DNA from: a virus
Taxonomy: Duplodnaviria > Heunggongvirae > Uroviricota > Caudoviricetes
DNA: 24,712 bases
Reading direction: 5' to 3' (one strand)
IMG/VR virus record: IMGVR_UViG_2541047887_000002
In this document: piece by piece, positions 1-24,712 of the stretch
Layout of the letters: each line of letters starts with the position of its first letter
Numbering within the stretch: position 1 is the stretch's first letter
The notes under the pieces: model-generated
The model's input: the letters and a program-made list of their open reading frames with translations, nothing else
Told to the model about the DNA's origin: nothing
The model's database searches: none
Translations under genes and position numbers: made by a program

Positions 1-224
1 GATAATTCGGTTTCACCTGCATCACGCCCGGCAATGCGCACCTGATACCAGCCGTCATTCAGTTTCTGACGAAACGCCGGGAGCTGTGTGGACAACGCCC
101 GGATGGCTTCAGCCCCCGTTTTTACACGAAGGTCGATGCGGCGGCCAAATCGTTGTAAATCCCCGTAAAGGCAGATGCGTGCCATGCCCGGTGACGCCAG
201 AGGGAGTGTGTGCGTCGCTGCCAT
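1..224 (-). CDS. I: Tail tip assembly protein I (lambda gpI-like), N-terminal part; gene continues beyond the window start
   Basis: Minus-strand ATG at 222-224 translates to MAATHTLPLASPGMARICLYGDLQRFGRRIDLRVKTGAEAIRAL..., matching the lambda gpI N-terminus as I recall it. It overlaps the 3' end of K by about 100 nt. Shorter than 60 aa in the window, so absent from the ORF track. Confidence 0.65.
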   Translation of the reverse strand, partial: MAATHTLPLASPGMARICLYGDLQRFGRRIDLRVKTGAEAIRALSTQLPAFRQKLNDGWYQVRIAGRDAGETEL

Positions 225-865
225 TTGTCGGTATACCTCTCTCGTTTGCTCAGTTGTTCAGGAATATGGTGCAACAGCTCACCGTCGCCGCAGTAAATGG
301 CGGCATGATTCGGCACCGATGAACCAAAACAGCACAGCAGCACATCGCCCGGCTGCGCCGCTGACAACGGCACCTGATACAGCCCTGTGGCCTCCAGATT
401 ATCCAGATAGAGATTCTGGCCGTTACACCACCAGTCATCCTCACGATGAAAGTCCGGCATCTCAATCCCCGCCAGATGATAAGCATCCCGGAACAGCGTG
501 TAACAGTCCGTCGCCCCGTGCTCAAAGCGCCGCCCGGTAAGATGCGGCACACAGCGGAATTTATGAATCTCACCCCGGCAGACCAGCCACCAAGGCAAAT
601 CGCTCTGCACCTGCAGCCGCCTGTCAGCCTCACTCAGCCAGGGCAGGCCACCGGGGTGGCTGTGGACCAGCGCCACAATCTCACCCTGCATCTCTGCCCG
701 CAGCCAGTCCTCCGGCGACATCCGGAAATACGCCTCCGGCTCACCGGAGATATTCACGCAGGGAAAATATCTTTCCCCTTCCGGCGTTCTCACCACGAAG
801 CCGCACGACTCCGCTGGCGCACATCGCCGGGCGTGCGCCAGAATCGCTGATTCTGTCTGTGTCAT
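122..865 (-). CDS. K: Tail tip assembly protein K (NlpC/P60 plus JAB/MPN-like), long form of 247 aa
   Basis: ORF 122..907 with the first ATG at 863-865 (MTQTESAILAHARR...). Contains the HSHPGG motif and a C-terminal Cys/His region typical of lambda gpK. Lambda's annotated 199-aa K would start at the internal MSPEDW. Confidence 0.85.
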   Translation of the reverse strand: MTQTESAILAHARRCAPAESCGFVVRTPEGERYFPCVNISGEPEAYFRMSPEDWLRAEMQGEIVALVHSHPGGLPWLSEADRRLQVQSDLPWWLVCRGEIHKFRCVPHLTGRRFEHGATDCYTLFRDAYHLAGIEMPDFHREDDWWCNGQNLYLDNLEATGLYQVPLSAAQPGDVLLCCFGSSVPNHAAIYCGDGELLHHIPEQLSKRERYTDKWQRRTHSLWRHRAWHASAFTGIYNDLAAASTFV

Positions 866-869
866 GGGA

Positions 870-1568
870 TTACTGCGAAAGTTTGTTAATGGAAAGGAAG
901 CCGCCAAAGTTGCCGACGTTATTGCGAAACTTACAGCCGCTCAGGCATTTGCTGCATTTATCCTTCGTGATATCGGACGTCGGCTGGTCATATTCATCCG
1001 CAACCGCCGGACCGTGATAACCGCACTCATCACCGCGATAGGTCCAGGTGCAGGTGTTGGCCAGCATGGTACGTCCCGGAAAAACAGCACCATCCGTTTC
1101 CGTCGGCGTGGACAGTACAAAAGAGGCACTCACCGCGCTCAGTTCGCTGCACTGCTCGATGCGCCAGCGGCTGATCACCTCCTGCTCTGGATCGGCTTCG
1201 CTGTTTCCGTTGACGAAGTTCACCACATCCAGAAAACGGGCGTAAACCTTACGCCTGACCACCGTTCCGCCGACCAGACTCTGCAGGTCTTCCGCCATCC
1301 CGGTGACCATGCCGTGCAGATTAGAGACTTTCAGCGTTGGCCTTGCACTGGCTCCTTTGCCGTTCATCTCAAATCCACTTCCCTGAATGGGATAGGCCTG
1401 ATACTGCCGCCCCTGCCAGGTGACTGGTTCACCTTTTTCGTTCTGCTCATTACAGAAGAAATAACGATCTCCGCCGACCTCTGTCAGATCAATTTCCCAG
1501 AGCACGACCAGCGCGGATTGCTCCGTTTTAGTGCACTCATTGAGTGTTTCCTGCTGTATATCCTGCAT
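870..1568 (-). CDS. L: Minor tail protein L (lambda gpL-like)
   Basis: 232-aa ORF MQDIQQETLNEC...FGGFLSINKLSQ, with the Cys-rich C-terminus characteristic of gpL. Its start overlaps the M stop (TGATG). Confidence 0.9.
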   Translation of the reverse strand: MQDIQQETLNECTKTEQSALVVLWEIDLTEVGGDRYFFCNEQNEKGEPVTWQGRQYQAYPIQGSGFEMNGKGASARPTLKVSNLHGMVTGMAEDLQSLVGGTVVRRKVYARFLDVVNFVNGNSEADPEQEVISRWRIEQCSELSAVSASFVLSTPTETDGAVFPGRTMLANTCTWTYRGDECGYHGPAVADEYDQPTSDITKDKCSKCLSGCKFRNNVGNFGGFLSINKLSQ

Positions 1569-1867
1569 CAGTGAGTGACCTCTTCAAAGGTACAGTTAAA
1601 ATCGGTATACATGGCATTATCCGAAATGCTCCACTCCCTGCAGACAACCCGGACAGTCCTGTTGTGTTTTGGCGGACGCCACAAAAAAGCACGAACCCCG
1701 GCATGACGGGATAAAAAACTGTCCAGCGCGGCACGGGAATATTCATCCGTGACACGAAATACCGGTTTAAACGTTTTCAGATCTGCATTCAGACCACCAG
1801 CCCGTCGCTGTTCATATCCGTCACCGAACTTTACCGTAATAACAGATGGCTTTCGTGTCGTCTCCAT
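1568..1867 (-). CDS. M: Minor tail protein M (lambda gpM-like)
   Basis: ATG at 1865-1867 (METTRKPSVITVKFGDGYEQR...), preceded by a GAGGGG Shine-Dalgarno. The upstream extension in the track would overlap the tape measure stop, so the internal start was chosen. Confidence 0.8.
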   Translation of the reverse strand: METTRKPSVITVKFGDGYEQRRAGGLNADLKTFKPVFRVTDEYSRAALDSFLSRHAGVRAFLWRPPKHNRTVRVVCREWSISDNAMYTDFNCTFEEVTH

Positions 1868-1901
1868 CCCCTCGCGGGGGATCCAGTTAAAAACTTCAGA
1901 C

Positions 1902-4900
1902 TCAGGCACTGCATAATCCTCCGTCCCGACGTGATGACTGCATAATTGACACAACCCTGCTGTCGATCAGATCCACCAGTCCCCTGGCTGAGCGCGCATC
2001 TATCTCGCCATTGCTCCCTTGATTCTGAATGCTGATGTGATACACGGGAGAATAAACAAATCCACCGCCACCATTCACATTTCCAATGGCCCTGACCCCA
2101 AGAGAGCCGTCCGCTGCCCGTGTCAGTGGCATGATTGCTTCAGGCCCGGCCTCGCCCATCAGCCCGGCACCTTTCGCAAAAGCAAAATACGTCGGGGTAT
2201 CCACAATGGTGTTACTGTAAGCACTCAGATTTGCCGATGTATAAACACCACCTTTTGCGTTTGCCACTGCACCGGAAAGCCAGTCGCCGACTGTACCAAG
2301 CCATCCTCCGGCACCGGACATGCTTTTGGAAAGTGACTTCAGCCCGTTAACGATGGCAGCGTTCATCAGAATTTTTGAAACTTCCTGGAGAATTGAACTC
2401 CCCCAGTTTCTCCAGTCCACAACATTTCCGGCCAGTGCATCGGAAATATTTGATACCAGCCCGTCCATAGTGGAAACGACAGCATCTGCCGCCTGCGAAG
2501 CATAATCGGTGGCACTGTCTGCCCAGTTCGTCAGTCCCTCCTGGAGTCCGGCATTCCAGTTACTGCGTAAAGCATCAGCCTTTGCATAATAATCCTGCTG
2601 ATCGCTGAGACGCTCTTCCAGATATTTTTCATTCAGAGATTTTTCCTGTTTCCACAGGGCTTCTTCAATTTCTCCGGCCTGATACTGTCTCAGTAGCTCG
2701 TTATTTTTCTGCTCAAACTCCTGCCGGATGCTCCACATTTCCTGAAGTCGTTCACGCATCCGTGAGCCTTCACCATATCCCAGTAACTGAGCCTCATTTG
2801 ATGCTCTGACACTGGCATTACTGTCCGCCAGACTGCTCTCATACGCAGCAAGCTGCTCACGAATCTTTTTCTGGTCGATGAGTGCTGCATTCTGCAAAAG
2901 CGTTTTTTTCTGCGCTTCTGACAGGGTTGATAATTCGCCCTGGCTGACCTGATATTTCATCTTAGCCAGTTCAGTATTCTGCCCTGCCAGTGCTATTTGC
3001 TCTTTTTGCTGTTTAATCAGTTGCTTATAAGTATCTTCTATTTTTTCCGCTTCGGTCTTTTTATGCGCTTTGGGTTTATTTGCCTGGTTATTTCGCCATG
3101 CATCCAGTGAGTTATTTATATAATTCAGTCTTGCTGTCTGATACGCCTCTCCCACAAAGCCGAGATCATCCGCAGCATAACCCAGGCGGGCACGCTCACG
3201 AGCTTCCCCCTTCAGGCGGGACAGAGCCAGTTCGCGCTCGCTGTTATTCAGTGCGGTCTGCTGTTTATCATCCAGGGTTGCCTGTGGTAGCCGTAACGGT
3301 ACATTCACCAGCCCCTGTCGCTGCTGAAGTAATTCATTACCGAGCCCGAGAAGGCGATTAAACTCGGTATGCTGCCCATTCATGATCAACAGGGACTGAT
3401 ACGCTTTGTTTTGTTCCGCTGCCTGTTGACGGATCAACGCCACCCGTCGCTCCTCCAGCCCGGCAAGCACATCCTGAATGGATTGCGCTTTGCCCTGCAT
3501 TTGAGTGAGGCGAGACTGTTCAACTGCCAGTTGATTTGTTGCTTCTGCAAGCCCTTCTGTGACAGTTTTTACCGACGTCATGTGGTTAATCATAAAACCG
3601 TTATCGGTTGTCCAGCCCGGGTTTGCCAGCACATACTGATAGCCAGCAATTTTTTCCTGTAAGGATTTAATCTTACTTTTCTGCTCGTCAATTAACCTGT
3701 TTTGCTCCTTCAGTGCCTGTCGCGTCTTTTCCTCATTATCTGACGCTTCAGGAAGCGACATTGCCGACGTTTTCTGGCGAATTTCGTCGATTGTTGCGGC
3801 ATACTGTCGTGCAGATTCTCTGGCCTGCTCCTGATTCTGATACATCGTGTACCAGGCCGCAGCCCCCAGCATGACGAGTCCCGGCACACCACCAACCAGC
3901 CCCAGCGCGCCACTTAATAAACGACTCCCCACTGACGTAACATTATTCAGCGTTGTCTGTGCCGCTGTTCTGGCCGCAATATTACGGGTAAGTGACACCT
4001 GGGCAGCTGTCAGCTTCGCTTCTGCTGCGGCCTGCCTTTCGGTACCGCGAGCAGCAACAACCGCCTGTTGCGCACGATAAACCGCCGCACGCGCCCTGGC
4101 GGTTGCTATCTGTGTCCCCCGAAGTTGCACTTCAGCAAGAGCCACTTCGTTTCTGGCTGCAGTAATTAATCCGGCAGTTGCAGATCCAGCAGACGACGCC
4201 ATATTGCCAAAATATCGGGCTACCCCGACGGCAACCAGAGCACCAGCAGCGGTTGCCACGGTGTCAATATTGCCTGCAATACCATTCAGCACACCGGAGA
4301 GCGTCTTCGTCACTCCGCTTGCCTCGTTCGCACCACCAACCCAGGCCATAAAGGCGTTTTCAACTTTGGTTGCAGAGGATGAAACCGTATCAGGCATTGC
4401 TGCATATTCATCACGCAACGCCCCAAGCTGACTAATCAGTGCAGGAACAACCTTATCGGCGGTCAGTTTTCCGTTATCCGCCATGGCCTTCAGATCCTTA
4501 CGGGCAACCCCCATTCCCGCAGCCAGCGCACGAATAACACGATCGCCGTTCTCATTCACCGAGTTAAACTCTTCACCGCGCAGCACTCCCTGCGCCAGTG
4601 CCTGACTGAACTGCGTGATCACCGAACTGGCTTCTGCTGTACTGGCACCGGATAATTTCAGGCCCGTGGAGATCGCCTCGGTGACTTTCAGTACCTCCTC
4701 AGAACTGTAACCATACTCCCGCATGGAAGCTGCAGAACGGGCAAAAAGGCTGGCGTTATCAGAAAACGCCGTCCCCGTTCTCTGGCTGATCGCCATTAAT
4801 TCACGCTGTGATGACTGAAAATCATCACTGGACTGTGAGGCCTGCTTCAGACGGGCATTTACTGAATTCCACTCATCGGCGAGAGAAATAAGATGACCGG

Positions 4901-5147
4901 TAGCAAAAGCCCCGGCAAATGCCCCCGCCATGTTCAGTGCCGAAGATTTAGCTGTATTTATCTGATCCGTCACTTCTGCCAGTGCACGCCGCATTTCACG
5001 GGATGCAGCAGCGGACTGTCGGCCTCCGTTCTGCATGGTACGGTAGTAATCCTGCCCCATACGCGAAGCCCGGGAGATCTCTGACTGGAATGACCGGGAA
5101 TTTGCCGAGATTTTAATAATCAGTTCACGTAATGTCGCCACACTCAT
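1902..5147 (-). CDS. H: Tail tape measure protein (1081 aa)
   Basis: Very long ORF with a coiled-coil, Ala/Gln-rich middle and a Gly-rich C-terminal part. It sits between GT and M as in lambda and HK97. GGAGA Shine-Dalgarno upstream of ATG 5145-5147. Confidence 0.9.
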   Translation of the reverse strand: MSVATLRELIIKISANSRSFQSEISRASRMGQDYYRTMQNGGRQSAAASREMRRALAEVTDQINTAKSSALNMAGAFAGAFATGHLISLADEWNSVNARLKQASQSSDDFQSSQRELMAISQRTGTAFSDNASLFARSAASMREYGYSSEEVLKVTEAISTGLKLSGASTAEASSVITQFSQALAQGVLRGEEFNSVNENGDRVIRALAAGMGVARKDLKAMADNGKLTADKVVPALISQLGALRDEYAAMPDTVSSSATKVENAFMAWVGGANEASGVTKTLSGVLNGIAGNIDTVATAAGALVAVGVARYFGNMASSAGSATAGLITAARNEVALAEVQLRGTQIATARARAAVYRAQQAVVAARGTERQAAAEAKLTAAQVSLTRNIAARTAAQTTLNNVTSVGSRLLSGALGLVGGVPGLVMLGAAAWYTMYQNQEQARESARQYAATIDEIRQKTSAMSLPEASDNEEKTRQALKEQNRLIDEQKSKIKSLQEKIAGYQYVLANPGWTTDNGFMINHMTSVKTVTEGLAEATNQLAVEQSRLTQMQGKAQSIQDVLAGLEERRVALIRQQAAEQNKAYQSLLIMNGQHTEFNRLLGLGNELLQQRQGLVNVPLRLPQATLDDKQQTALNNSERELALSRLKGEARERARLGYAADDLGFVGEAYQTARLNYINNSLDAWRNNQANKPKAHKKTEAEKIEDTYKQLIKQQKEQIALAGQNTELAKMKYQVSQGELSTLSEAQKKTLLQNAALIDQKKIREQLAAYESSLADSNASVRASNEAQLLGYGEGSRMRERLQEMWSIRQEFEQKNNELLRQYQAGEIEEALWKQEKSLNEKYLEERLSDQQDYYAKADALRSNWNAGLQEGLTNWADSATDYASQAADAVVSTMDGLVSNISDALAGNVVDWRNWGSSILQEVSKILMNAAIVNGLKSLSKSMSGAGGWLGTVGDWLSGAVANAKGGVYTSANLSAYSNTIVDTPTYFAFAKGAGLMGEAGPEAIMPLTRAADGSLGVRAIGNVNGGGGFVYSPVYHISIQNQGSNGEIDARSARGLVDLIDSRVVSIMQSSRRDGGLCSA

Positions 5148-5157
5148 TCTCCGGACG

Positions 5158-5179
5158 AAAAAAAACCGCCGAAGCGGTT
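5158..5179 (-). terminator. Intrinsic terminator-like hairpin between GT and the tape measure gene
   Basis: Minus strand reads AACCGC-UUCG-GCGGUU followed by a U-tract, immediately upstream of the tape measure Shine-Dalgarno. Confidence 0.4.
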
Positions 5180-5187
5180 ATGTTGAC

Positions 5188-5876
5188 TCACTGAGACACT
5201 ATTAAAAGCGCGTTTTCCAGTCCAGCAAATGGATCTGATACGCCTTCTGTCTGCTCCTTCTCCCACTGAAGAAGCGCATCATTCAGTGGCACTTTGACCC
5301 CCTGCGCACCGTAAACAGCTGAAACAATCTGGGCAGCCCGGATATCAGCCCGTTCGTCCCCCAGCGGGCTGAACCTGTCAAATTCTGCCCACATCATGAT
5401 TTCTGATGCGGACATTTCCCGGCGTAACTCTGACAATGTGCGCCCCATCCTGAGCGCCAGCATCATCAGAAAACGCATCCCCGGAAGCGCTACTTTTTTT
5501 TAACCTCGCCGGCATCACTGATTAGTTCCAGAGACTGCCGAAGAAGCCGCGCATGCACCGGGCCATACACGGCAATCACCTGTTCACGATCATCCTCTGA
5601 AAATACAGGTTGCAGTCCGGTATCACACAGAACATCGATGAACAGTTCAACATCCGCTTCCAGATTTCGGCGGGCGCGCTCCGCAACGGATAACGGTGTC
5701 TCATCATCTTTTGCTTTAACGATCTCCTGCCAGCGCAACCAGGCTTCTGCAGAAGGTTCCCGTAATACAACCGTTGCCCCTTCCCATTCAGGCACATCAA
5801 CAGTTTTATGGCGAAACCCCGACATCGTTGCCAGTGCCAGATTACGGATATTTTTAGTCATCACATCTATCCTCAT
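5188..5876 (-). CDS. GT: Tail assembly chaperone GT, made by a programmed -1 ribosomal frameshift
   Basis: Minus-strand heptamer A AAA AAG (plus 5493-5499) sits just before the G stop TAG. The -1 frame is open from the slip site to the stop at 5188 and encodes ...KKVALPGMRFLMMLALR.... Confidence 0.75.
5490..5876 (-). CDS. G: Tail assembly chaperone G
   Basis: 128-aa acidic protein ending GEVKKK-stop. Its start overlaps the V stop (TAATG). Its 3' end carries the slippery heptamer. Confidence 0.85.
   Translation of the reverse strand: MRIDVMTKNIRNLALATMSGFRHKTVDVPEWEGATVVLREPSAEAWLRWQEIVKAKDDETPLSVAERARRNLEADVELFIDVLCDTGLQPVFSEDDREQVIAVYGPVHARLLRQSLELISDAGEVKKK
5493..5499 (-). promoter_or_regulatory. 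-1 frameshift slippery heptamer A AAA AAG for G to GT
   Basis: Read directly from the sequence. The conserved G/GT frameshift of long-tailed phages is established knowledge. Confidence 0.7.
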
Positions 5877-6580
5877 TAACTGACGGTAACAGTGCAGGAA
5901 GTAGAGGTCACTTTGTTAACCGGGCTTGCTGAATCAGAAATCTCGCAGGTATATGCACCCGCATCACCGGATACTGCCGATGCCTTACTGAACGTTGCCG
6001 CCGTCTGTCCGGAAACAGGAGAACCACCTTTCTTCCAGACATAAGAATAAGGCGGCACACCACCCGCAGCCTCAACCGCCATTTCAAGTTTCGATCCGGA
6101 AGCAACCCGCAGCGTGCTTTTTAAATCGACCTTCACTTTCAGCGGCTCTGTCGTCAGCACAGGTTTACCTTTCAGGCGCAGAGAAAACGTTGCAGCCACA
6201 ACACCATTGGTTCCTGCAGACCAGGTATGCTGACGCACCTCTGCCATAAAGGTAAATCCGTTGCCTGACGGAAAAATAACTTTAAAGCCATACGTGGTGT
6301 CATTGTCATAGGCACTGCGCAACGCGTTCTGGGCAGCATTGAGGTAAAAGTTGCCTGACATGGAAATCTCTGAAGCAGCACCAAGGCCGTTAATATTTTC
6401 CTGCTCAACAGAACACAGCGTGGTGACATCAATATCCTGCTTTTGTCCTGCAGTAAACTGCACCTCTTTGATTGTACAGCTCAGGCCAAGATAGCTGGCA
6501 GAATCCAGGGTTTCTGCTGTTACCGGTGCAGACGAAATCATAATTTTCGTCAGTTGCGAACGCTCAAAATTAGAGGACAT
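5876..6580 (-). CDS. V: Major tail protein with C-terminal Ig-like domain
   Basis: ATG at 6578-6580 (MSSNFERSQ...) with an AGGAGA Shine-Dalgarno. The C-terminal segment GGVPPYSYVWKKGGSPVSG...AGAYTCEISD resembles a Big_2/Ig-like domain. Confidence 0.85.
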   Translation of the reverse strand: MSSNFERSQLTKIMISSAPVTAETLDSASYLGLSCTIKEVQFTAGQKQDIDVTTLCSVEQENINGLGAASEISMSGNFYLNAAQNALRSAYDNDTTYGFKVIFPSGNGFTFMAEVRQHTWSAGTNGVVAATFSLRLKGKPVLTTEPLKVKVDLKSTLRVASGSKLEMAVEAAGGVPPYSYVWKKGGSPVSGQTAATFSKASAVSGDAGAYTCEISDSASPVNKVTSTSCTVTVS

Positions 6581-6596
6581 ACTCGTCTCCTGAAAA

Positions 6597-6618
6597 TAAA
6601 AAACCCGCCAGCGGCGGG
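6597..6618 (-). terminator. Intrinsic terminator-like hairpin upstream of the major tail gene
   Basis: Minus strand reads CCCGCCGCUGGCGGG followed by UUUUUAUUUU, in the gap between the tail completion gene and V. Confidence 0.45.
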
Positions 6619-6639
6619 TGGGTAAAATCATTAACGACC

Positions 6640-6984
6640 TCAGGCTATTACCTGAAATTCAAGCGTGGCTCTGCTCAGACGGGAGTCAGGATCATACCCC
6701 TGCGTTTTAGAAATAACGGAGGGTGCCAGTTTCCTTACTGCATCAAGCGCCTGCTCACGAATATCATCTGCGTCATCAGGTACTGTCGCCCAGACATCGA
6801 TCTGCACGGTAATTCTGGATTCAGCCTGCCCATCAAGCACATCAGATGCCGTGTCAGACACCACAGAAAACACCAGCCACGGCGGAGATACCGCAGGCTT
6901 TCCCTCCGTCAGCGGGACCACATAAGGATAAACCTGTCCTCCGGCCAGCTGAGACAACAGGGAATACAGTGTGCCCTCCCTCAT
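6640..6984 (-). CDS. Tail completion/terminator protein (DUF3168-like); family assignment tentative
   Basis: 114-aa ORF in the conserved position just upstream of the major tail gene. Overlaps the next gene by 4 nt. Confidence 0.7.
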   Translation of the reverse strand: MREGTLYSLLSQLAGGQVYPYVVPLTEGKPAVSPPWLVFSVVSDTASDVLDGQAESRITVQIDVWATVPDDADDIREQALDAVRKLAPSVISKTQGYDPDSRLSRATLEFQVIA

Positions 6985-7430
6985 TTACTTAAGACCTCAT
7001 CAATAGCCTGATTCATTCGCTGTATGGCAACCTGCGCCGCCAGCTCCTCTGTCGTATCGAAAGCCGGGCGAATGAATGGATGCGCGGGCATGTTTATCGT
7101 TCCCAGCTCCACAAAGCGCCAGTAAAATGCATTTCGGGGATCGCTGGCTTTCATGCTGTTATCACTGTTTCCGGTTCGCAGGTTCCGTCCGCGAATGTGG
7201 ACACCCGAGATAATTTCCCCCCGACGCTTTGAACGCTGAGTGAGAACAACCACATTTTTCTTCAGTTTCCCGGTTCGCTCCGGCGCACGTTCAACAACTG
7301 CATCCCGCATAACTTCAGCACCGGCACGGGTGGCATCGCGCAGAACCTTATTGTTTTCTGCCCTGCTGAGCGTCTCCAGATCCCGTGCAATATCCGCCAG
7401 GCCGGAAAAATCAAGACTGAAATCCATCAC
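6981..7430 (-). CDS. HK97 gp10-family head-tail joining protein
   Basis: 149-aa ORF MMDFSLDFSGLADIARDLE..., translationally coupled to its neighbours. The position and start motif fit the HK97 gp10 family. Confidence 0.75.
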   Translation of the reverse strand: MMDFSLDFSGLADIARDLETLSRAENNKVLRDATRAGAEVMRDAVVERAPERTGKLKKNVVVLTQRSKRRGEIISGVHIRGRNLRTGNSDNSMKASDPRNAFYWRFVELGTINMPAHPFIRPAFDTTEELAAQVAIQRMNQAIDEVLSK

Positions 7431-7765
7431 ACATTCCCCTTCAGGCTGCAGAGTATTTCAAGCCGGGTAGCGCGTGCATCCGGTATTGGTGGACCTTCTA
7501 TACCCAGAATGGCCCCTTTAAATGCACCGGTCAGCACTTTCAGACGTGAAGTCGCTGTCACATCGCGCCGGAATCTCATCCAGACTCTGACCGTAGCCTG
7601 AGCGGTTTCTGCTCCGCCTGAGATTATCTCCCTCCCGCTGATACCCTTAACTTCTGCCCATACGGTAGCTCCCTCCGTCACCGTCTCCACCGGATGCCCT
7701 GACGGAGAGCGGGCGGTGGTGACATTCAGAATAATTACGCGATCACGTAATCTGCCCGCCTGCAT
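7427..7765 (-). CDS. Head-tail adaptor / head closure protein
   Basis: 112-aa ORF with synteny between the connector and gp10-like genes. Overlaps the next gene by 4 nt. Confidence 0.75.
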   Translation of the reverse strand: MQAGRLRDRVIILNVTTARSPSGHPVETVTEGATVWAEVKGISGREIISGGAETAQATVRVWMRFRRDVTATSRLKVLTGAFKGAILGIEGPPIPDARATRLEILCSLKGNV

Positions 7766-7773: not shown

Positions 7774-8091
7774 CTACAAAGGAATAAAACGATAAGGCTC
7801 CAGCAGAGAAGAAAAACCAAACGGGACTGGTGCCTTGCTGACATCTGAGGAATTTTCCCGGTTTTCGTACCAGTGCCCGACCAGCAACATGAGCGCCAGC
7901 AAAACATCATCAGCTATAAGCACCCCTTCAGGATCACCTTCCGGCACCGTCTCCTCATAAAGCTTACGGTTGATAAAATTTTCTGCCTTGCGGCAGGCAG
8001 CCCGGAAATACAGCATCAGTAACTCATCATCAGTTGCATCATCTGTATCAATACGGCACTGCGCCCTGAGTTTTTCCACTATTGCTGCCAT
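7774..8091 (-). CDS. gp6-like head-tail connector protein
   Basis: ATG at 8089-8091 (MAAIVEKLRAQCRIDTDDATDDELL...) with an AGGAG Shine-Dalgarno. The longer track ORF would overlap the capsid gene, so this internal start was chosen. Confidence 0.75.
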   Translation of the reverse strand: MAAIVEKLRAQCRIDTDDATDDELLMLYFRAACRKAENFINRKLYEETVPEGDPEGVLIADDVLLALMLLVGHWYENRENSSDVSKAPVPFGFSSLLEPYRFIPL

Positions 8092-8124
8092 CAGAAACTC
8101 CTGCCCGCAACACTGTGCGGGCAT

Positions 8125-8146
8125 AAAAAAACCGCGTCGGCGCGGT
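8125..8146 (-). terminator. Intrinsic terminator downstream of the major capsid gene
   Basis: Minus strand reads ACCGCGCCGACGCGGU followed by UUUUUU. A second hairpin (GCCCGCA...UGCGGGC) lies at 8102-8121. Confidence 0.5.
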
Positions 8147-8167
8147 CTGTAACTGAACAACGAGTGG

Positions 8168-9385
8168 TTATTTGCCAGTGAGCGCCTTGATGGCTGCCAC
8201 ATCTTCCAGCACACAGTCAAAACGATGGAAAGCCAGAAATGCCACCTGATCAAACTCAGCATAACGCTCAACCAGACGTTTCAGTTCCATATAAGTAACG
8301 CGGCGAATGATAAAGCGGTTGAAATCCCCCAGGAAAATGAATTTTTTTCCGGTACCAATCCCGTCAATAGCCTGATCAATAACATAAGGGATCCCCAGCA
8401 CAGTAGCCGGCGTACCGCCTGCAATATCCGGCAGCCATAACGGGCGTTTCTGCCCATCCTCCATCTCTTCAATAGTCTGCAATGTGGCATCATTGAATGC
8501 CCAGCGGTATTTCGGCCCACCACGATATGCCGGATCAATGGCATGTTTCAGGGCATTCATTTCTTTCCAGGTGAAAGCGGCAGAGGCTGCAGTCTGGATG
8601 GTTCCCGTCACCGACGCTGCCAGCCCTTTTGGCTGTAACGGTGATCCCGTTCCGGTCCCCTGAACCAGATATTTTGCCTCTCCACGACCAATACGCTGGG
8701 CAATACGGTTTGCCAGATAAGATTCAATATCCACCCCACTGTCCTGGAGCAGCTCATTGGACACACGAATTATTTTTGATGACAGCTTTTTAGCCCCCAG
8801 AATAGCGGTCCCGAACGTCACATCCTGTTCCGTTGCGGCTGTATTTTCCGCCAGCAGTTCGCCCTCTTCAGTCGTGCCATCAGACGTTGACCAGGTGATA
8901 TCCTGCCCGGTTGATGTGGTCAGAAGTTGCGCCACACTGGCAATCCCGCCATAAGCCTTCATGGTGTCAATGATTTTGTTACGCATCTGCGTGGGCACCG
9001 TATATCCGCCCTGAGAATCCGTTGTTACACTCTGAGCCCGCAGTTCACGCATCAGATTACGCTCTTCAGCATTCAGTTCTGCAAATCCGGCACGCAGAAA
9101 ACGGTTAAATGCCGCAGCGCGCTTCTCTTCCACCGCCTTTTTCCCGTTCTCCGCCTCATTATTCTGGCGCTCTTCCGGCCCGGACTCATCCACATATGCC
9201 TGATCCTGACGGCGCAACTCTTCTTCACGGGCGATTTGCTCATCCAGCGCATCCAGCTCAGCTTTCGCCCTGTTCCACTCTGCCCGTTGCTCATCAGTCC
9301 ATGCGTTATCACCAATTTTTTCATGCAGTGCACGCATATCCTTTGCAATGGTGTTTCGTTTTTGCTTCATCTCATGAAGTTTCAT
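8168..9385 (-). CDS. Major capsid protein, HK97 family, with N-terminal delta/scaffold domain
   Basis: 405-aa ORF with a coiled-coil N-terminal about 100 aa and a C-terminal HK97-fold region. Follows the prohead protease as in HK97. Confidence 0.9.
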   Translation of the reverse strand: MKLHEMKQKRNTIAKDMRALHEKIGDNAWTDEQRAEWNRAKAELDALDEQIAREEELRRQDQAYVDESGPEERQNNEAENGKKAVEEKRAAAFNRFLRAGFAELNAEERNLMRELRAQSVTTDSQGGYTVPTQMRNKIIDTMKAYGGIASVAQLLTTSTGQDITWSTSDGTTEEGELLAENTAATEQDVTFGTAILGAKKLSSKIIRVSNELLQDSGVDIESYLANRIAQRIGRGEAKYLVQGTGTGSPLQPKGLAASVTGTIQTAASAAFTWKEMNALKHAIDPAYRGGPKYRWAFNDATLQTIEEMEDGQKRPLWLPDIAGGTPATVLGIPYVIDQAIDGIGTGKKFIFLGDFNRFIIRRVTYMELKRLVERYAEFDQVAFLAFHRFDCVLEDVAAIKALTGK

Positions 9386-9399
9386 CGTCAGTAGTATCC

Positions 9400-16269: not shown

Positions 16270-16620
16270 TTAAGGTTGTGATTCCGGAGGAGTCTTCAGA
16301 GAACCAGTAATTCTTCCTGGTAGCTTTCCTTTGTAGGTTATCCACACATTCTGCGCCTCTAAAATTACGGGGCGCTTTTCCGGCGACTGCTCATCCCCTT
16401 CACATAACCCGGCAGCAACATCCAGGAAGACCTGTCTGATGCTCCTTCTGGCTGCTGCCTCATAAAACCCCAGCGCGGCACCTTCAACACGGTCCAGCGA
16501 GATGTCCAGGTCAAAAATTTCACCGTCAAAGCGTTTTTTGTCCCGTAACGCTAAAGTTACCGTAACTTTATTCTCAAAATTGCGGATCCCTTTCACAATC
16601 AGTTCATAGTTTTGAGTCAT
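16270..16620 (-). CDS. YdfR-like (DUF1327) phage protein between holin and endolysin
   Basis: 116-aa ORF in the position that ydfR occupies in the E. coli Qin prophage (essQ-ydfR-rrrQ). Its Shine-Dalgarno region now abuts the IS911 left end. Confidence 0.65.
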   Translation of the reverse strand: MTQNYELIVKGIRNFENKVTVTLALRDKKRFDGEIFDLDISLDRVEGAALGFYEAAARRSIRQVFLDVAAGLCEGDEQSPEKRPVILEAQNVWITYKGKLPGRITGSLKTPPESQP

Positions 16621-16632: not shown

Positions 16633-16704
16633 TGAAGTGGTTTACTGAATTTGGCCACCTGAACAGAGGTGATATGCTCACCTCAGAACAACACAGGTGC
16701 CATA

Positions 16705-18093
<1,389 letters not shown>

Positions 18094-18258: not shown

Positions 18259-18264
18259 GCATGT

Positions 18265-18294
18265 AAAAAGGCCCCAACACATGTGCGTGGGGCC
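18265..18294 (-). terminator. Minus-strand intrinsic terminator-like hairpin
   Basis: Minus strand reads GGCCCCACGCACAUGUGUUGGGGCC followed by UUUUU. Confidence 0.45.
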
Positions 18295-18494
18295 TGAGAG
18301 TATACATGGTTTCAGTCAACTGCATGGTGCCGGGTGCCTCCCGGTGAATTCAGTACCAGCACCTGAATCCGCGATTATCCCATATACCTACTCGCTGATT
18401 GCCCCTCCGCACAGGGGGATTCACCATGCCAGTTTCTTTTAACAAACTCCCCGCAAAACAGACAACTGTCAACCGTCTGAATTGTGAGACATTT

Positions 18495-18520
18495 AAAAAA
18501 AAGGCCCGCAAAAGCGAGCC
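18495..18520 (-). terminator. Intrinsic terminator after the tRNA cluster
   Basis: Minus strand reads GGCUCGC-UUUU-GCGGGCC followed by eight U, about 15 nt after the 3' end of the last tRNA. Confidence 0.55.
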
Positions 18521-18534
18521 GGGAAAAATAAGTC

Positions 18535-18611
18535 TGGCGCGTTGTACTGGATTCGAACCAGTGACCGATTGCTTAGAAGGCAATTGCTCTGTCCGGTTGA
18601 GCTAACAACGC
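18535..18611 (-). tRNA. tRNA-Arg (anticodon UCU)
   Basis: Hand-folded cloverleaf: acceptor GCGUUGU/ACAACGC, D-stem GCUC/GAGC, anticodon stem AUUGC/GCAAU with loop CUUCUAA, T-loop UUCGAAU, encoded 3' CCA. Confidence 0.75.
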
Positions 18612-18624
18612 AGGGTACAGATAA

Positions 18625-18701
18625 TGGACCGCCATCGAGGACTCGAACCCCGCGCAACCAGCTTCGAAGGCTGGTGCTCTATCCTGATGAGCTAATGGCG
18701 G
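18625..18701 (-). tRNA. tRNA-Arg (anticodon UCG)
   Basis: Hand-folded cloverleaf: acceptor CCGCCAU/AUGGCGG, D-stem GCUC/GAGC, anticodon stem CCAGC/GCUGG with loop CUUCGAA, T-loop UUCGAGU, encoded CCA. The 5' end is uncertain by 1 nt. Confidence 0.65.
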
Positions 18702-18708
18702 TATGTGA

Positions 18709-18784
18709 TGGTGGCCCTTGCTGGATTTGAACCAGCGACCTGGCGATTATGAGTCGCTCGCTCTCACCTCTGAGCTAAAGGGCC
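18709..18784 (-). tRNA. tRNA with anticodon CAU, most likely tRNA-Ile2 (ileX/ileZ-like); elongator Met not excluded
   Basis: Sequence GGCCCUUUAGCUCAG...GACUCAUAAUCGC...GGUUCAAAUCCAGCAAGGGCCACCA closely resembles E. coli ileX as I recall it. Anticodon loop CUCAUAA. Confidence 0.7.
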
Positions 18785-18904
18785 GGGCGCAGGATAATAA
18801 CGTTACGAAATCAATGTTGCAAGCATTCAAAAATCACCTGGTTAAAAATCACCCTTAGCTCCTCCACCAGCGCATTCACCATGTCTATCCGAGATAAGTG
18901 GCAC

Positions 18905-18934
18905 AAAAAAACCCGCTTGTGGGCGGGTTTTGTT
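18905..18934 (-). terminator. Bidirectional intrinsic terminator, candidate tR' of the late promoter
   Basis: Stem AAACCCGC / GCGGGUUU flanked by an A-tract and a U-rich tract, about 60-90 nt downstream of the Q-like stop codon. Confidence 0.55.
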
Positions 18935-18994
18935 TGCTTTTGCCATCACGTACAAAATCGGCAAAATATCAGATTTGCATGAAATATATGCCTT
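18935..18994 (-). promoter_or_regulatory. Candidate late promoter pR' and qut region (position-based only)
   Basis: AT-rich gap between the Q-like stop and the terminator. I could not place convincing -35/-10 hexamers by eye. Confidence 0.3.
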
Positions 18995-19684
18995 TCAATC
19001 TACTTTTGCAACACTTTGCTTTGAAAATGCCGCCTTTTGTTTTGAACGTGTTCTCATTACAAACAATAAAGCCTCACTATCCAGTCGTTGAAAAATGTGT
19101 TTCATTGCAACCCAGTGACGAGTAAATGTTTTGGACCAGTTTTTAGTTGTCACTCCCGCCAGTAATGCCAGCTCCTGGTATTCATAACCTTCCCCACCAA
19201 AAAGTTCTGCTTTTACTGCCTGCGCCGCCAGCCAGATTAATTTTTTCAGGCGTTCCTGCGTTTTCCCTGCAATTTTTCTGGTACCGGATTGAGTATTAAA
19301 TTCATTCCACGCCCACTGTGTTATCGCGATCTGATATTCCCAACAAATACTCCCGCCGTAACACCACAACAACCAGGCTTTATGATGCTCTTCAAGAGAC
19401 AGCAAAGCCCGCCGCCATGATGATGTCGAAAACTCAACCGGGCTGACCAGGGCAATTGATGAGCCATTCGCCAGTGATTGTTTTCCCGGGATTGGTGGAT
19501 TATCCCGCGTTATCATTTTTCCAGTCACTTCATCGCGGTACCGGATTTTTTTTCGCCTGTAACGCCCTGTATCGAACATGGCATTCTCCTGCCAGGCTTC
19601 AAGCTGACCTTTTGTTGCCCCACTCAAATCAGCGGTGGCGATAATGAGCTGCTCACGCACAAACTGTAAATACTGGTTATTCAT
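18995..19684 (-). CDS. Putative late-gene antiterminator (Q-like), assigned by position
   Basis: 229-aa ORF with ATG at 19682-19684 overlapping the RusA stop (ATGA). It lies directly upstream of the terminator, tRNAs and lysis genes. No clear zinc-finger motif, so the identity is tentative. Confidence 0.5.
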   Translation of the reverse strand: MNNQYLQFVREQLIIATADLSGATKGQLEAWQENAMFDTGRYRRKKIRYRDEVTGKMITRDNPPIPGKQSLANGSSIALVSPVEFSTSSWRRALLSLEEHHKAWLLWCYGGSICWEYQIAITQWAWNEFNTQSGTRKIAGKTQERLKKLIWLAAQAVKAELFGGEGYEYQELALLAGVTTKNWSKTFTRHWVAMKHIFQRLDSEALLFVMRTRSKQKAAFSKQSVAKVD

Positions 19685-20046
19685 GCGCACTCCAGTTCTG
19701 TGATTTTTATCCCCAGCCGCCCACCAGGAACGAGCTGACCGCGCACAATATTGATTTCATCAAACTGCTCGTCGTCTATAAGTAGTCCGGCATGCGTCAG
19801 CGCATCCAGTGGTGCCTTCAGGATATTGTCCAGGTCACGACGGCGCTTATCCGGTGGCTCTGCAATAATCTTTATCGCCAGCCTTCCGGACAGGTTTAAT
19901 TTCAGCCGCTGCTGGCGAACAATTAGCGCCACATCACGGCGATAACGCTTTCCGGCTTCCGAGATGAAATACGTATTGCCATGACGTCGCCAGTAGGTAT
20001 TCACCGTCGGCGGGTAAGGCAAAACAAATTCTATGCGTTCAGTCAT
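19681..20046 (-). CDS. rusA: RusA Holliday junction resolvase
   Basis: 121-aa ORF with PYPPTVNTYWRR and DKRRRDLDNILKAPLDALTHAGLLIDD motifs, matching RusA (compare DRRRRDLDNLQKAAFDAL in E. coli RusA). Confidence 0.9.
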   Translation of the reverse strand: MTERIEFVLPYPPTVNTYWRRHGNTYFISEAGKRYRRDVALIVRQQRLKLNLSGRLAIKIIAEPPDKRRRDLDNILKAPLDALTHAGLLIDDEQFDEINIVRGQLVPGGRLGIKITELECA

Positions 20047-21102
20047 TCATGCTTTCCACTTCAGGACACCCGAATTTCTCGCGTGCATTAAAAAACGAAT
20101 CAGCAACAACAGCTGGCTGCCGTGTTTTTCTTCAAAATCTTTTACCCCGGCGTGCAGTTCGTTATGACATTTACGGCACAGCGGAATAACAAACAAATCA
20201 TCAGCCTTTGTTCCCATCCCTCCCAGTCCATGACCAATGATGTGATGCGGATCATCTGCCTGATTACCGCACGTCATGCATTTCTGCGTTTTTACCCAAC
20301 GCGTGTATACAGGCATCTCTTCCCGTTGTGGTTTCTGGCGCTGGAGATACTGAGCCGGTGACTCCGGATCAACGGCAATGCTGACCACCGTCTTTTCCTG
20401 TGGCGGGTTTTGCTGGTGGGCATGAGGCAACGGCGCAAGATTTTTTGTGCGCTGCTTCAGTATGCTGGTGGCGGTCTGCTCTCCCGGTACGATGTCGCTT
20501 TCGCGGTACAAGGAGCGGATTTTTTCCGCACGTAACCCCAGAGAACGACGTAATACTGCCTCCGGAAGCGCGTCCGCCACCTGATTGCAGACCGCCCACC
20601 AGGATAATTCAGCCAGCGACAATTCCCGCTCCTGCGTGCCATTCATTGCATGGCGTATGACGTCAATCATCCATGCTGACAGGTTTTGATGAGCAAGTTG
20701 CCCGAGTGATTCGGATGTCTGGTCACGCAACTGGTTGTCGCAGTGCCAGCACAACACCATCGCGCCGGTACCGTAACGATGTATGACGATTTCACTGTGA
20801 TGATAGTCACCATGAGGCCACTGGCAGGATTTGACATGACGCAACAGCCAGTCAGACAGTGCCCCAGCGCCGCCAGCAGCACGAATCACCCGCTCATCGC
20901 TGAAAAATGGCAGTAATGATTTATCCTCCGCCAGCGGCTGGCGAACGGCAGGGACGACTCCGGACGGCAGACCGCGCATGCTTTTCGGTTCAGGCTCCAC
21001 CAGCACTCGAGGGTTATGAAATACTTGCATGGATTCACAGCCCGGCCTAAGGACCACCAGCCCGAGTTCCGGTACCAGAACAGGTCGAAGTAATACCCGC
21101 AC
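20047..21102 (-). CDS. YdfU-like (DUF968) protein with C-terminal HNH-like Cys/His motif
   Basis: C-terminus reads CMTCG...HHIIGHG...CRKCHNELH. GTG start at 21100-21102 is coupled to the upstream stop with a GGAGG Shine-Dalgarno; an alternative ATG lies at 21030. Same neighbourhood as ydfU in Qin. Confidence 0.7.
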   Translation of the reverse strand: MRVLLRPVLVPELGLVVLRPGCESMQVFHNPRVLVEPEPKSMRGLPSGVVPAVRQPLAEDKSLLPFFSDERVIRAAGGAGALSDWLLRHVKSCQWPHGDYHHSEIVIHRYGTGAMVLCWHCDNQLRDQTSESLGQLAHQNLSAWMIDVIRHAMNGTQERELSLAELSWWAVCNQVADALPEAVLRRSLGLRAEKIRSLYRESDIVPGEQTATSILKQRTKNLAPLPHAHQQNPPQEKTVVSIAVDPESPAQYLQRQKPQREEMPVYTRWVKTQKCMTCGNQADDPHHIIGHGLGGMGTKADDLFVIPLCRKCHNELHAGVKDFEEKHGSQLLLLIRFLMHARNSGVLKWKA

Positions 21103-21103
21103 G

Positions 21104-21376
21104 TTACCTCCAGATGCGTTGCTGGAATGTGCGGGACGGACGCGGTGGGCGTTCAGAGTAAGGAAGCCTGACGGAGATTATCCAGTGACGATAATCGAGG
21201 CTGAGGGCTTTCTTAATCTCGTATCCGCGTCTGCGGTAGTTATGAATTAGCCATTCGGCCTGTTCTTCAGTACATGGTGGGTGTTGGTACCAGTCGGTTT
21301 TAAATGCGTGTGAACGCCGCTCATGCCGGATGGCAAGGTCGGTATCAGAATTGTGAAATTTGGTTTTGTGCGCCAT
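21104..21376 (-). CDS. Hypothetical protein (90 aa)
   Basis: ORF with ATG at 21374-21376, tightly packed upstream of the DUF968 gene. No motif recognised. Confidence 0.5.
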   Translation of the reverse strand: MAHKTKFHNSDTDLAIRHERRSHAFKTDWYQHPPCTEEQAEWLIHNYRRRGYEIKKALSLDYRHWIISVRLPYSERPPRPSRTFQQRIWR

Positions 21377-21448
21377 CTGTTTTCTCTGCTGGCGCAGCAG
21401 GTGTCAGGTGTTCAGGCTGACGTGCGAATTGTAAACCAGAATGCCAGG

Positions 21449-21475
21449 AAAAAACAAAACCCGCCGAAGCGGGTT
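21449..21475 (-). terminator. Intrinsic terminator downstream of hok
   Basis: Minus strand reads AACCCGC-UUCG-GCGGGUU followed by UUGUUUUUU. Confidence 0.6.
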
Positions 21476-21543
21476 AAGTGCGGGTGCGTTGAGGATGCCT
21501 GACACATCAGAGGCGGCGAGGGATTTCTCCCTCGCCAAGTCTC

Positions 21544-21699
21544 TTACTCCTCAGGTTCGTAGACTGTGAAGACAGCGACCTCCGTCTGGCCGGTTCGGAT
21601 TCGTACCTCGCAGAGGTCTTTCCTCGTTACCAGTGCCGTCACTATGACGGTTAAACAGATGACGATCAGGGCGATTAACATCGCCTTTTGCTGCTTCAT
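21544..21699 (-). CDS. hok: Hok-family type I toxin (HokD/RelF-like, 51 aa)
   Basis: MKQQKAMLIALIVICLTVIVTALVTRKDLCEVRIRTGQTEVAVFTVYEPEE is near-identical to E. coli HokD as I recall it. AAGGAG Shine-Dalgarno upstream. Confidence 0.85.
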   Translation of the reverse strand: MKQQKAMLIALIVICLTVIVTALVTRKDLCEVRIRTGQTEVAVFTVYEPEE

Positions 21700-21756
21700 A
21701 GCCTGCTTCTCCTTGCCTTTCGGCACGTAAGAGGCTAACCTAGATTTGCCGTTCAT
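21544..21756 (-). CDS. mok: Mok-like overlapping reading frame (translational coupler for hok)
   Basis: In-frame upstream extension of 70 aa from ATG 21754-21756, as in hok/mok/sok loci. Confidence 0.4.
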   Translation of the reverse strand: MNGKSRLASYVPKGKEKQAMKQQKAMLIALIVICLTVIVTALVTRKDLCEVRIRTGQTEVAVFTVYEPEE

Positions 21757-21952
21757 AGATTGAGCCTCAGATTAATGTTAAGCGTCTTGCAGGACGCGTA
21801 ATGTTAACTGGGGCTTTTCTCTATCTGCCTTTGGTGTTCATGCCTGAGGCAGATAGCCTCAAGCACCCGCAGCAATTCTACTTAAGTTAGATAAGCTTTT
21901 CTATGGTATTCTCTCAGCGTCCCGTAAATACAGTCTCGGCTCATCATTTTTA

Positions 21953-23213: not shown

Positions 23214-23308
23214 TTCACTACCGCCCTTTAGGGCGGCCTCCTGATGTTCTGAGGGTGCAGAAATCCCTCCGGTTAAGGATTAAATTGTATTTACAGCGCT
23301 AAATTTAT

Positions 23309-23665
23309 TTATTCAGTTCTGGATTTTGTCGCCCTGCGTATCCGCGCTTTCGCGTTACGCTCAATCTGAATTAACTTTTCTATATTTTTCCGCCTTTCCT
23401 GTTCCTCCTGGCGCAATAGCCTTACATCATCTGCCAGTCTGGTTTCTCTTTTCGCCACTGAGAGCATCCAGTCAAACGGCTCCACAACTGCACCGCAGAT
23501 TTTACAGCGGACCTGACGCTCTTTTTCGTCAACCCGGACAGAAGCGTGATGGCAGTATGGTCTTTCCGATGGCTCATAAAGAAAATTAACCTGATTACGA
23601 GGGTCATCCTCTTTTACCGGAAATAAAACGATATTGCTTAACTCATCCTCTGGTTTTATTTCCAT
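23309..23665 (-). CDS. Hypothetical zinc-ribbon-like protein (118 aa)
   Basis: Strong Shine-Dalgarno AAGGAGAGGAG. Cys/His cluster CHH...CKIC, then a basic coiled-coil C-terminus. Confidence 0.6.
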   Translation of the reverse strand: MEIKPEDELSNIVLFPVKEDDPRNQVNFLYEPSERPYCHHASVRVDEKERQVRCKICGAVVEPFDWMLSVAKRETRLADDVRLLRQEEQERRKNIEKLIQIERNAKARIRRATKSRTE

Positions 23666-24104
23666 GCTCCTCTCCTTTGATGCGAATGCCAGCGACGCGT
23701 AATGCGTGTTCTAGGTCAATCAGGTAAAGCCAACTGCCATTTTCTTTAGGTATCATGACATGTCGCTCATCTGCATTTATCGGGTGTCCATATCGAAGGT
23801 CGTAGCGAGTCGGTAATTGAACTTCCCGCGCTTCCAGTTCAGCAATACGCTTGCTCCCATCAGAGATAACGCCTTCGTAATACTCACGCTGCTCGTTGAG
23901 TTGTGATTTTGCTTCTTCCAGTCCATCCAGCAAATCAGCGATAATATCCGCTTCCCGATGACGGATGTGACGCTTAAACGCAGCAAGAGCCGCATCACAA
24001 TCCCGTTCAGCATTTGGGCTGTCCGGGATAGCCTGATACCACGCCAGCGTCGACTGATAGTTTTGTGCTGCCTCACGAAGCGCCTCATAGTTAACCTCTC
24101 TCAT
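23643..24104 (-). CDS. Hypothetical nin-region protein (153 aa)
   Basis: ORF overlapping its upstream neighbour by 4 nt. Confidence 0.6.
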   Translation of the reverse strand: MREVNYEALREAAQNYQSTLAWYQAIPDSPNAERDCDAALAAFKRHIRHREADIIADLLDGLEEAKSQLNEQREYYEGVISDGSKRIAELEAREVQLPTRYDLRYGHPINADERHVMIPKENGSWLYLIDLEHALRVAGIRIKGEEHGNKTRG

Positions 24105-24397
24105 TGAGCCACCTCCTGATAAATCACCGCATGCCCCAGTTTCTCCGCCAGTGCCAGCTCTGCCTTAGCGCCCGCTGACCGCTGCCAGCCATTCAGCATG
24201 TAAATCGCATCCACACAACGAATCATTGCCATGCAAATATCCATGTAGTGCGGCTGTGTCAGCCCGTCCGGAAGTACTGCCGGGTTTAAGACGGTATGCC
24301 CTTCCCGTTTCAGTTCCTCTTCCACCTTGTGAAATGCCTCACGGTTGAAATTTTCATATCCCGTCATTGGACCGGCAATATAAACTCTCACCCTCAC
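24101..24397 (-). CDS. DUF4406-like protein (nucleoside 2-deoxyribosyltransferase-like fold)
   Basis: N-terminal VYIAGPMTG motif typical of this small phage family. Overlaps its upstream neighbour by 4 nt. Confidence 0.6.
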   Translation of the reverse strand: MRVRVYIAGPMTGYENFNREAFHKVEEELKREGHTVLNPAVLPDGLTQPHYMDICMAMIRCVDAIYMLNGWQRSAGAKAELALAEKLGHAVIYQEVAQ

Positions 24398-24690
24398 TCC
24401 ATCACCTCCTGAAAGTTTCCCCGATAGAACGCCAGCACACGCTGCATAACTTCGCTCCTCCTGCTCTCACGACAAATTATGTTCTGGTGCCTGTCGTAGC
24501 GGCGCATTTCGCCGTCTGGTAACGACCAGATAAGGTCCGGATCAACCACTGCAGGTTTCTTCACCTTTGCCCTTGAGAGTTTTTTGCGAGCATTTTGCCA
24601 GTCCTTACGCGCCTGTTCAGACGGGAATAACCCGTAACCAGAGTCGTATACATCGCCACTGGCAACCAGCTCTCTGGCGAGAACACTCAT
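24394..24690 (-). CDS. Hypothetical nin-region protein (98 aa)
   Basis: ORF with ATG at 24688-24690, 22 nt from the window end. Confidence 0.5.
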   Translation of the reverse strand: MSVLARELVASGDVYDSGYGLFPSEQARKDWQNARKKLSRAKVKKPAVVDPDLIWSLPDGEMRRYDRHQNIICRESRRSEVMQRVLAFYRGNFQEVME

Positions 24691-24712
24691 CAGATATCTT
24701 GTCGCACCTGTC

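Follow-up and report, generated by a model that had tools for sequence, protein, structure and literature searches.

Where does gene K of the lambdoid phages begin, and is the 199-residue gpK of the phage lambda reference record the whole protein? The question is raised by a 24,712-nucleotide stretch of viral DNA (IMG/VR record IMGVR_UViG_2541047887_000002; hereafter the window, meaning the whole stretch at its full length), which covers the late region of a mosaic lambdoid prophage common in Escherichia coli. Its genes lie almost wholly on the minus strand, running from the early-right/nin region to the tail tip, and near the end of this series is a 247-codon version of the tail-tip gene K. 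An initial annotation, made from the letters alone, had pointed to an ATG 48 codons upstream of the start annotated in lambda. It is very likely that this long form is the normal full-length gene and no special variant, and that the 199-residue lambda K is an artefact.

Reading frame and domain structure of K

The features at the tail-tip end of the window are as follows:

870–1568, minus strand: L, minor tail protein (Pfam Phage_tail_L, 331 bits)
122–865, minus strand: K, 247-codon tail-tip assembly peptidase as predicted from its translation and Pfam matches (JAB/JAMM domain at residues 3–105, NlpC/P60 domain at residues 111–224)
722–865, minus strand: N-terminal extension of K, 48 codons (helix at residues 3–15, strands at 21–27 and 30–36, catalytic Glu19)
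719–721, minus strand: ATG of Met49, equivalent of the annotated start of lambda K (14276), with GGAGG 11 nt upstream
122–224, minus strand: K/I overlap of 103 nt, K codons 214–247 being one base out of register with I codons 1–34
1–224, minus strand: I, tail-tip protein with an N-terminal ubiquitin-like domain, 5' part only, as the gene leaves the window (Pfam Lambda_tail_I at residues 14–73)

Gene L ends with a TAA at 872–870, the K ATG follows 4 nt on at 865, and K closes with a TAA at 124–122; the ATG at 865 thus lies in frame and 48 codons above the one at 721, as the initial annotation had it. The product matches lambda K, once the latter is corrected as described below, at 240 of 247 residues (97.2%; 7 differ), and is 94% identical to phage 21 K. 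By this identity, by the order L-K-I, by the start of I inside it, and by the J gene that follows in the closely related prophage of E. coli M1/5 (NZ_CP053296), the gene encodes lambda gpK.

Both Pfam domains score well above their cut-offs. The Prok-JAB match (PF14464; 53.5 bits, cut-off 25) covers profile positions 3–113 of 114 and the NLPC_P60 match (PF00877) scores 49 bits (cut-off 23). We aligned 14 K homologues, the most distant being HK97 K at 36% identity, and in these the JAMM motif, defined as E-x(n)-H-S/T-H-x7-S-x2-D (PMC300881), is invariant (E19, H68-S69-H70, S78 and D81), as are the NlpC/P60 residues C121, H187 and H199. The extension alone holds 12 invariant columns, E19 and eleven others. 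Two bacterial JAB proteins of known structure, 2KKS and 2KCQ, are matched by a profile of the K homologues, the match beginning at K residue 4, and HK97 K aligns from residue 3. An AlphaFold2 model of K has a mean predicted local distance difference test (pLDDT) score of 81.9, and residues 1–40 are its most confident part (pLDDT 89–94). Foldseek searches with the JAB half of the model return 2KKS, PfJAMM1 (5LD9; target-normalised TM-score 0.64, root-mean-square deviation 2.6 Å), Rpn11 and CSN5, and those with the NlpC/P60 half return the endopeptidases MepS, LytE and CwlO.

Population data agree with the long frame. Conservation of the upstream ATG had been named as a check on it, and an intact 247-codon K open reading frame (ORF), beginning at the same ATG 4–5 nt past the L stop, is present at 80/80 related IMG/VR loci. 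Among 71 distinct sequences the ratio of nonsynonymous to synonymous polymorphism (pN/pS) is 0.19 for the extension when it is read in the K frame, where the differences cluster at third codon positions, as against 1.3 and 2.9 in the other two frames. In a search of 5.8 billion proteins most clusters of K homologues are 244–249 residues long, and the long K is what the Prokaryotic Genome Annotation Pipeline (PGAP) calls in M1/5 (as a 247-aa C40 family peptidase) and what is annotated in phage 21 and HK97. All of this bears on the reading in which the 199-residue K is the sole real product and the upstream 48 codons are a non-coding spacer. That reading has the annotations of NC_001416 and of UniProt TIPK_LAMBD on its side, but it is already contradicted by the complete JAB domain, the invariant Glu19, the alignment of HK97 K from residue 3, the third-position variation with its pN/pS of 0.19 and the 80 intact ORFs, and we consider it barely credible. 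K is a conserved protein with two peptidase domains, and its gene fits closely between L and I. In this window its full length is already annotated by RefSeq; the short form is a peculiarity of the lambda reference record and of annotations taken over from it.

One base missing from the lambda reference

The reference sequence itself does not contain the long frame. The K frame of NC_001416 does not open until 14258 and the record's ATG at 14133 is in a different frame, so that an upstream ATG in frame with the annotated K is true of the window and false of the lambda reference. Alignment shows a single length difference, NC_001416 having GAGGCTATTT where the window and four lambda-derived genomes have GAGGCGTATTT; at the aligned site the reference reads GAGGC-TATTTCC and the others GAGGCGTATTTCC. 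The four genomes come from different groups and are lambda imm21 (OM418625), lambda PV340536, DE3 (EU078592) and Lambda_AGU (LC730321, 48,503 bp). By this comparison J02459/NC_001416, the 1982 sequence, lacks one G (14266 C>CG). Because that G is missing at 14266, the true K start is out of frame in the reference, and annotators therefore took the next in-frame ATG, which follows GGAGG.

We scanned two sequence collections with a pattern that accepted either state, with or without the G. The G is present in all 22 matches from a collection of species-representative genomes and in all 120 from IMG/VR, and the G-less state of the reference was found in none of these 142 lambda-type sequences. 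Of the 22, 21 are in genera other than Escherichia, and because of this, and because several are low-coverage contigs of ~48.4–48.5 kb (the length of whole lambda), the most likely source of these contigs is contamination with lambda. At least 1,000 contigs carry the exact 247-residue lambda K, under the name "MULTISPECIES ... [Bacteria]", and 194 carry the short form; ten of ten contigs on which exactly the 199-residue K is called carry the G or another base at the site, and the short calls on these reflect other (homopolymer) indels or the caller's choice of start. In the literature we found, the missing G itself appears only as an entry in a table of variants, a MutaMouse lambda-gt10 study (PMC6760142) giving 14266 C>CG among its constitutional variants. 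Feiss et al. (2022) remark in general terms that nine differences from the published lambda sequence are common to many laboratory lambdas (PMC9119081). A 76-residue ORF is expected from the G-less reference and was not found among 15 billion proteins, although this is weak evidence since gene callers would probably suppress an ORF overlapping K. We conclude that it is highly probable that RefSeq NP_040598 and UniProt TIPK_LAMBD, both of 199 aa, lack the first 48 residues of gpK, including the JAMM catalytic Glu, through one base missing at 14266.

Two other explanations of the reference sequence were considered. A programmed frameshift in lambda K was rejected, as all relatives have one continuous ORF. 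The missing G could also be a real frameshift, private to the stock that Sanger sequenced, which would then function with a truncated K; a frameshift in stf, the gene of the side tail fibre, is known from laboratory lambda (PMC10721106 mentions it), and two GenBank lambda records share the G-less state. We think this improbable: none of the 142 lambda-type sequences lacks the G, it is present in the four lambda derivatives from different groups and in lambda-gt10, and the two G-less records look as if derived from the reference. A separate consequence of the reference frameshift is that tblastn of the window K against NC_001416 gives 87% identity from residue 17, which is an artefact of aligning across it and is replaced by the corrected value given above.

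Several points weigh against our account. The two G-less records exist, OR474059 (flagged UNVERIFIED) and OR974322 (with gene coordinates equal to those of the reference), although both may be derived from it. The G-containing lambda imm21 and DE3 genomes are still annotated with the 199-residue K, the 247-residue form being used by PV340536, phage 21 and PGAP. We searched the literature for a paper that calls the annotated start of lambda K wrong outright, or that sets out what the missing G means for K, and found none. Support for the K start codon comes entirely from sequence comparison and modelling, and cleavage of the I product by K, discussed below, is a prediction only. Finally, no Shine–Dalgarno sequence precedes the ATG at 865, yet GGAGG stands 11 nt before the internal ATG at 721, and some internal initiation there is possible.

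This last point is the basis of a reading in which the lambda lineage makes two K isoforms, one of 247 residues from an L-coupled ATG and one of 199 residues from Met49 (an NlpC/P60 domain with a truncated JAB), an arrangement that would resemble the nested C and Nu3 genes. Both the GGAGG and the ATG at 721 are kept in 69/71 close relatives, and the Met49 start is often chosen by gene callers and curators. However, the GGAGG is accounted for by the conserved Glu42-Pro43-Glu44, two close relatives have ATA or CTG at Met49, and the Salmonella, Yersinia and HK97 homologues have Ile or Leu there together with a Glu-Pro-Thr that cannot encode GGAGG. To judge from these substitutions Met49 is not a conserved start, and a protein beginning at it would be without the helix, the two strands and Glu19 of the JAB fold. 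Two isoforms are on this evidence unlikely. The preferred reading, a single full-length K, has its own likely route of initiation: K is probably translated by termination–reinitiation coupled to L, because its ATG has no Shine–Dalgarno sequence ahead of it and stands just 4 nt after the L stop (5 nt in lambda).

The K/I junction and the predicted activities of K

At its 3' end K overlaps the start of I, as the initial annotation had noted, giving about 100 nt. I starts at 224 and K stops at 122, a 103-nt overlap that is the same in phage 21 and in lambda (14773–14875). The I ATG is kept in 71/71 sequences, and over the 33 I codons that lie inside K the pN/pS is 0.036 in the I frame and 3.7 in the K frame, the variation falling at the second position of K codons, where I codons have their third. 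Some gene callers choose a 190-residue I that starts at the K stop; the invariant ATG, the low I-frame pN/pS and the Lambda_tail_I match from I residue 14 support the longer I. The C-terminal tail of K has low model confidence and is missing from HK97 K, which has no overlap with I. From these patterns the overlap is genuine, with the constraint in the I frame and the last ~23 residues of K largely free to vary.

Lambda and phage 21 (OL657228) share the L-K-I order as well as the overlap, and phage 21 K is also 247 aa long; the lambda reference record has only 199 K residues annotated, owing to the missing G. The window differs from both phages in that L-K-I is joined to a non-lambda M and an HK97-like tail shaft. 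HK97 (NC_002167) likewise has its K annotated from a position adjoining L.

The activities of K are predicted ones, an N-terminal JAB/JAMM metallopeptidase and a C-terminal NlpC/P60 cysteine peptidase. K is described in the literature as an assembly factor, and gpK was undetected in lambda virions by mass spectrometry (PMC10721106). Iyer et al. (2006) predicted that I loses its ubiquitin-like N-terminal domain through the action of the K JAB domain (PMC1779556), and gpI is resolved in the virion tail tip only at residues 134–222 (PMC12617516). The JAMM/MPN+ deubiquitinase-like peptidases (PfJAMM1, Rpn11, 2KKS) have the E...HxH...S..D motif and the fold in common with K, and the K gene adjoins that of a ubiquitin-like substrate candidate, I (PMC1779556). 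K differs from these enzymes in that its JAB domain is fused to an NlpC/P60 peptidase and in that its activity and substrate are predicted from sequence and model. The structure of PfJAMM1 was solved as a complex with the ubiquitin-like protein SAMP2, and the structural match of K to this enzyme would fit the idea of K–I cleavage.

Mosaic structure of the prophage and the use of gpK

The remaining features of the window are:

1568–1909, minus strand: M, minor tail protein (40% identical to lambda M, 44% to phage 21 M, 39% to HK97 M)
1902–7765, minus strand: HK97-like neck and tail-shaft genes, identified by Pfam and identity (head closure, gp10-like, tail completion, major tail protein, G, T, tape measure)
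7774–14103, minus strand: HK97-family packaging and head module, identified by Pfam (HNH, P27-type small terminase subunit (TerS), large terminase subunit (TerL), 53-aa ORF, portal, S78 protease, capsid, connector)
15209–16620, minus strand: distal lysis genes, identified by Pfam and identity (YdfR/DUF1327, GH24 endolysin, Rz, and Rz1 embedded at 15271–15456)
16633–17882, plus strand: ISEc52 (IS3 family), 1,250 bp, in the last sense codon of the holin
17728–18093, minus strand: S21-type pinholin (Pfam Phage_holin_2_1, 120 bits), of which codons 1–70 are native (17883–18093)
18259–21868, minus strand: upstream context, identified by searches and Qin identities (STnc100-like late leader, three tRNAs, Q, RusA, DUF968/YdfU, hokD/sok)

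The M1/5 prophage is collinear with the window in two blocks at 99.95–99.99% identity, and the sole large difference is 1,250 bp extra in the window. PGAP annotates M1/5 in the order Q, three tRNAs, class II holin, YdfR, lysozyme, Rz and a reverse-strand YfbU; HNH, P27-family TerS, TerL, portal, HK97-family protease, capsid and connector genes; then major tail protein, G, T, tape measure, M, L, K, I and J. Another 119 complete E. coli genomes each cover 80% or more of the window, and induced phages including vB_EcoS-689R5, Evi and PhiR49_2 cover 66–89% of it at 95–99% identity. Because of the M1/5 collinearity, these genomes and the induced phages, the arrangement is real and common. That it is instead an assembly chimera has next to no probability: we found no points in favour of one, and against it stand a complete genome collinear at 99.99% identity save for the insertion sequence (IS), the 119 complete genomes, and the 89% coverage at 97.7% identity by vB_EcoS-689R5. 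The last ~312 bp of the window (24400–24712, part of a DUF977 ORF) have no match in the M1/5 prophage, which marks another mosaic boundary at the window edge.

The initial annotation described a three-way mosaic of modules. The mosaicism is borne out but the number is not, as there are at least seven blocks with differing nearest relatives: Qin-like early/nin genes; an S21-matching holin; a Qin-like ydfR and endolysin; lambda-like Rz/Rz1; an HK97-family head remote from HK97; an HK97-like neck and tail shaft; and an orphan M followed by lambda/21-like L-K-I. Such mosaicism is the usual lambdoid pattern, expected and no finding in itself.

M, L, K and I had been read as near-identical to lambda, and of these only L, K and I are. 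L is 93% identical to lambda L and 94% to phage 21 L, and the first 74 residues of I are 91% identical to those of both phages; together L, K and I are 91–97% identical to lambda as against 35–43% to HK97, so that the comparison named as capable of refuting their lambda affinity upholds it. M is the exception, at 40%. The lambda-like DNA is window 22–1588 (92.7% identity), and as the similarity begins 20 nt before the L start, the mosaic junction is at the 3' end of M.

The packaging and head genes belong to HK97-type families, as had been proposed. HNH, P27-family TerS, TerL, portal (PF04860), S78 prohead protease and HK97-family capsid (PF05065) are all above Pfam cut-offs, the HNH and P27-type TerS genes adjoin the module, the gene names in the M1/5 PGAP annotation agree with the Pfam families, and HK97 has the same families for HNH, terminase and the portal–protease–capsid series. 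A close relationship to HK97 itself does not follow: TerL, portal and major capsid protein are only 24–28% identical to those of HK97, and BLAST found no hit in HK97 for the protease or TerS. The most HK97-like block is that from head closure to tape measure, with 51–80% aa identity. In this block T lies in the -1 frame relative to G, and an A8-G run (5493–5501) directly ahead of the G stop codon is the slippery site to be expected for the conserved G/G-T tail-chaperone frameshift. A conserved hydrophobic 53-residue ORF (11208–11369) without a Pfam match lies between TerL and portal and overlaps both. A low-GC block (~43–46%) between Rz and HNH (14242–15053) carries a reverse-strand YfbU-family gene and an 88-residue ORF without a Pfam match, and looks like a moron insertion beside the probable cos region.

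The lysis cassette had been called phage-21-type with a ydfR-like insert. The insert is present, a YdfR/DUF1327 gene between holin and endolysin, and the holin is of phage 21 type but the endolysin is not. Pinholin residues 1–70 are identical to phage 21 S (S21-71) at 70/70 positions and 83% identical to Qin EssQ, and the S21 identity, the dual-start MKSM motif and two transmembrane domains place the protein among the S21 class II holins (PF04971). Its DNA (17883–18093) differs from phage 21 39866–40081 at 36/210 nt, all synonymous; 70/70 aa identity despite 36 nt changes indicates, as far as sequence can, unusually strict purifying selection on the protein. The endolysin is closest to Qin RrrQ (92.7%) and only 34% identical over 147 residues to R21, of which it is by identity not an orthologue; it has a signal-anchor-release (SAR)-like N-terminal segment (residues 7–24) and the GH24 triad E35-D44-T50 (E-x8-D-x5-T). 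Rz/Rz1 are 74–76% identical to lambda and phage 21 Rz. The Qin cryptic prophage of E. coli K-12 (essQ-ydfR-rrrQ, hokD, ydfU) has the same holin-ydfR-lysozyme order, but in the window the holin matches phage 21 S and is interrupted by an IS, and the lambda-like Rz/Rz1 have no match to Qin RzpQ.

The 71-codon holin frame is not intact. The junction, read directly, shows the Glu71 codon and stop replaced by 51 IS-encoded codons, through an ISEc52 insertion that the initial annotation overlooked and that the otherwise 99.99% identical M1/5 prophage does not have. The element is intact and 100% identical to many annotated ISEc52 copies, with termini TGAAGTGG ... CCACTTCA, terminal repeats TGAAGTGG, a 3-bp target duplication (GAG) and an orfB carrying an rve integrase (DDE) domain (110 bits). 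It divides the holin from ydfR, endolysin, Rz and the whole morphogenetic operon, and may affect the ability of this prophage to lyse its host.

Both the lysis genes (15209–16620) and the nin genes (20047–21868) are Qin-like and not phage-21-like, with identities to Qin of 80% for YdfR, 98% for HokD and 80% for the DUF968 protein (to YdfU). A sok antisense RNA lies at 21694–21868. Between the tRNA cluster and the holin, within 18259–18784, is an Rfam STnc100 match (140 bits) that is probably the late-promoter leader, and the tRNA anticodons are CAT (Ile in the M1/5 annotation), TCG (Arg) and TCT (Arg).

For this window the consequences are small. It is a routine mosaic prophage with its K already full length in RefSeq and with the classical lambda K/I overlap, and nothing in it is new in kind. 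The most-used phage reference genome keeps a truncated K without half of the JAB domain and without the catalytic Glu, and studies of gpK, of tail-tip assembly or of K and I as protease and substrate should use the 247-residue protein. If our reading is true, clones, interaction screens and models made from the annotated ORF used a truncated and probably inactive protease, and the 2006 prediction of K–I cleavage would need to be tested with the 247-residue protein.

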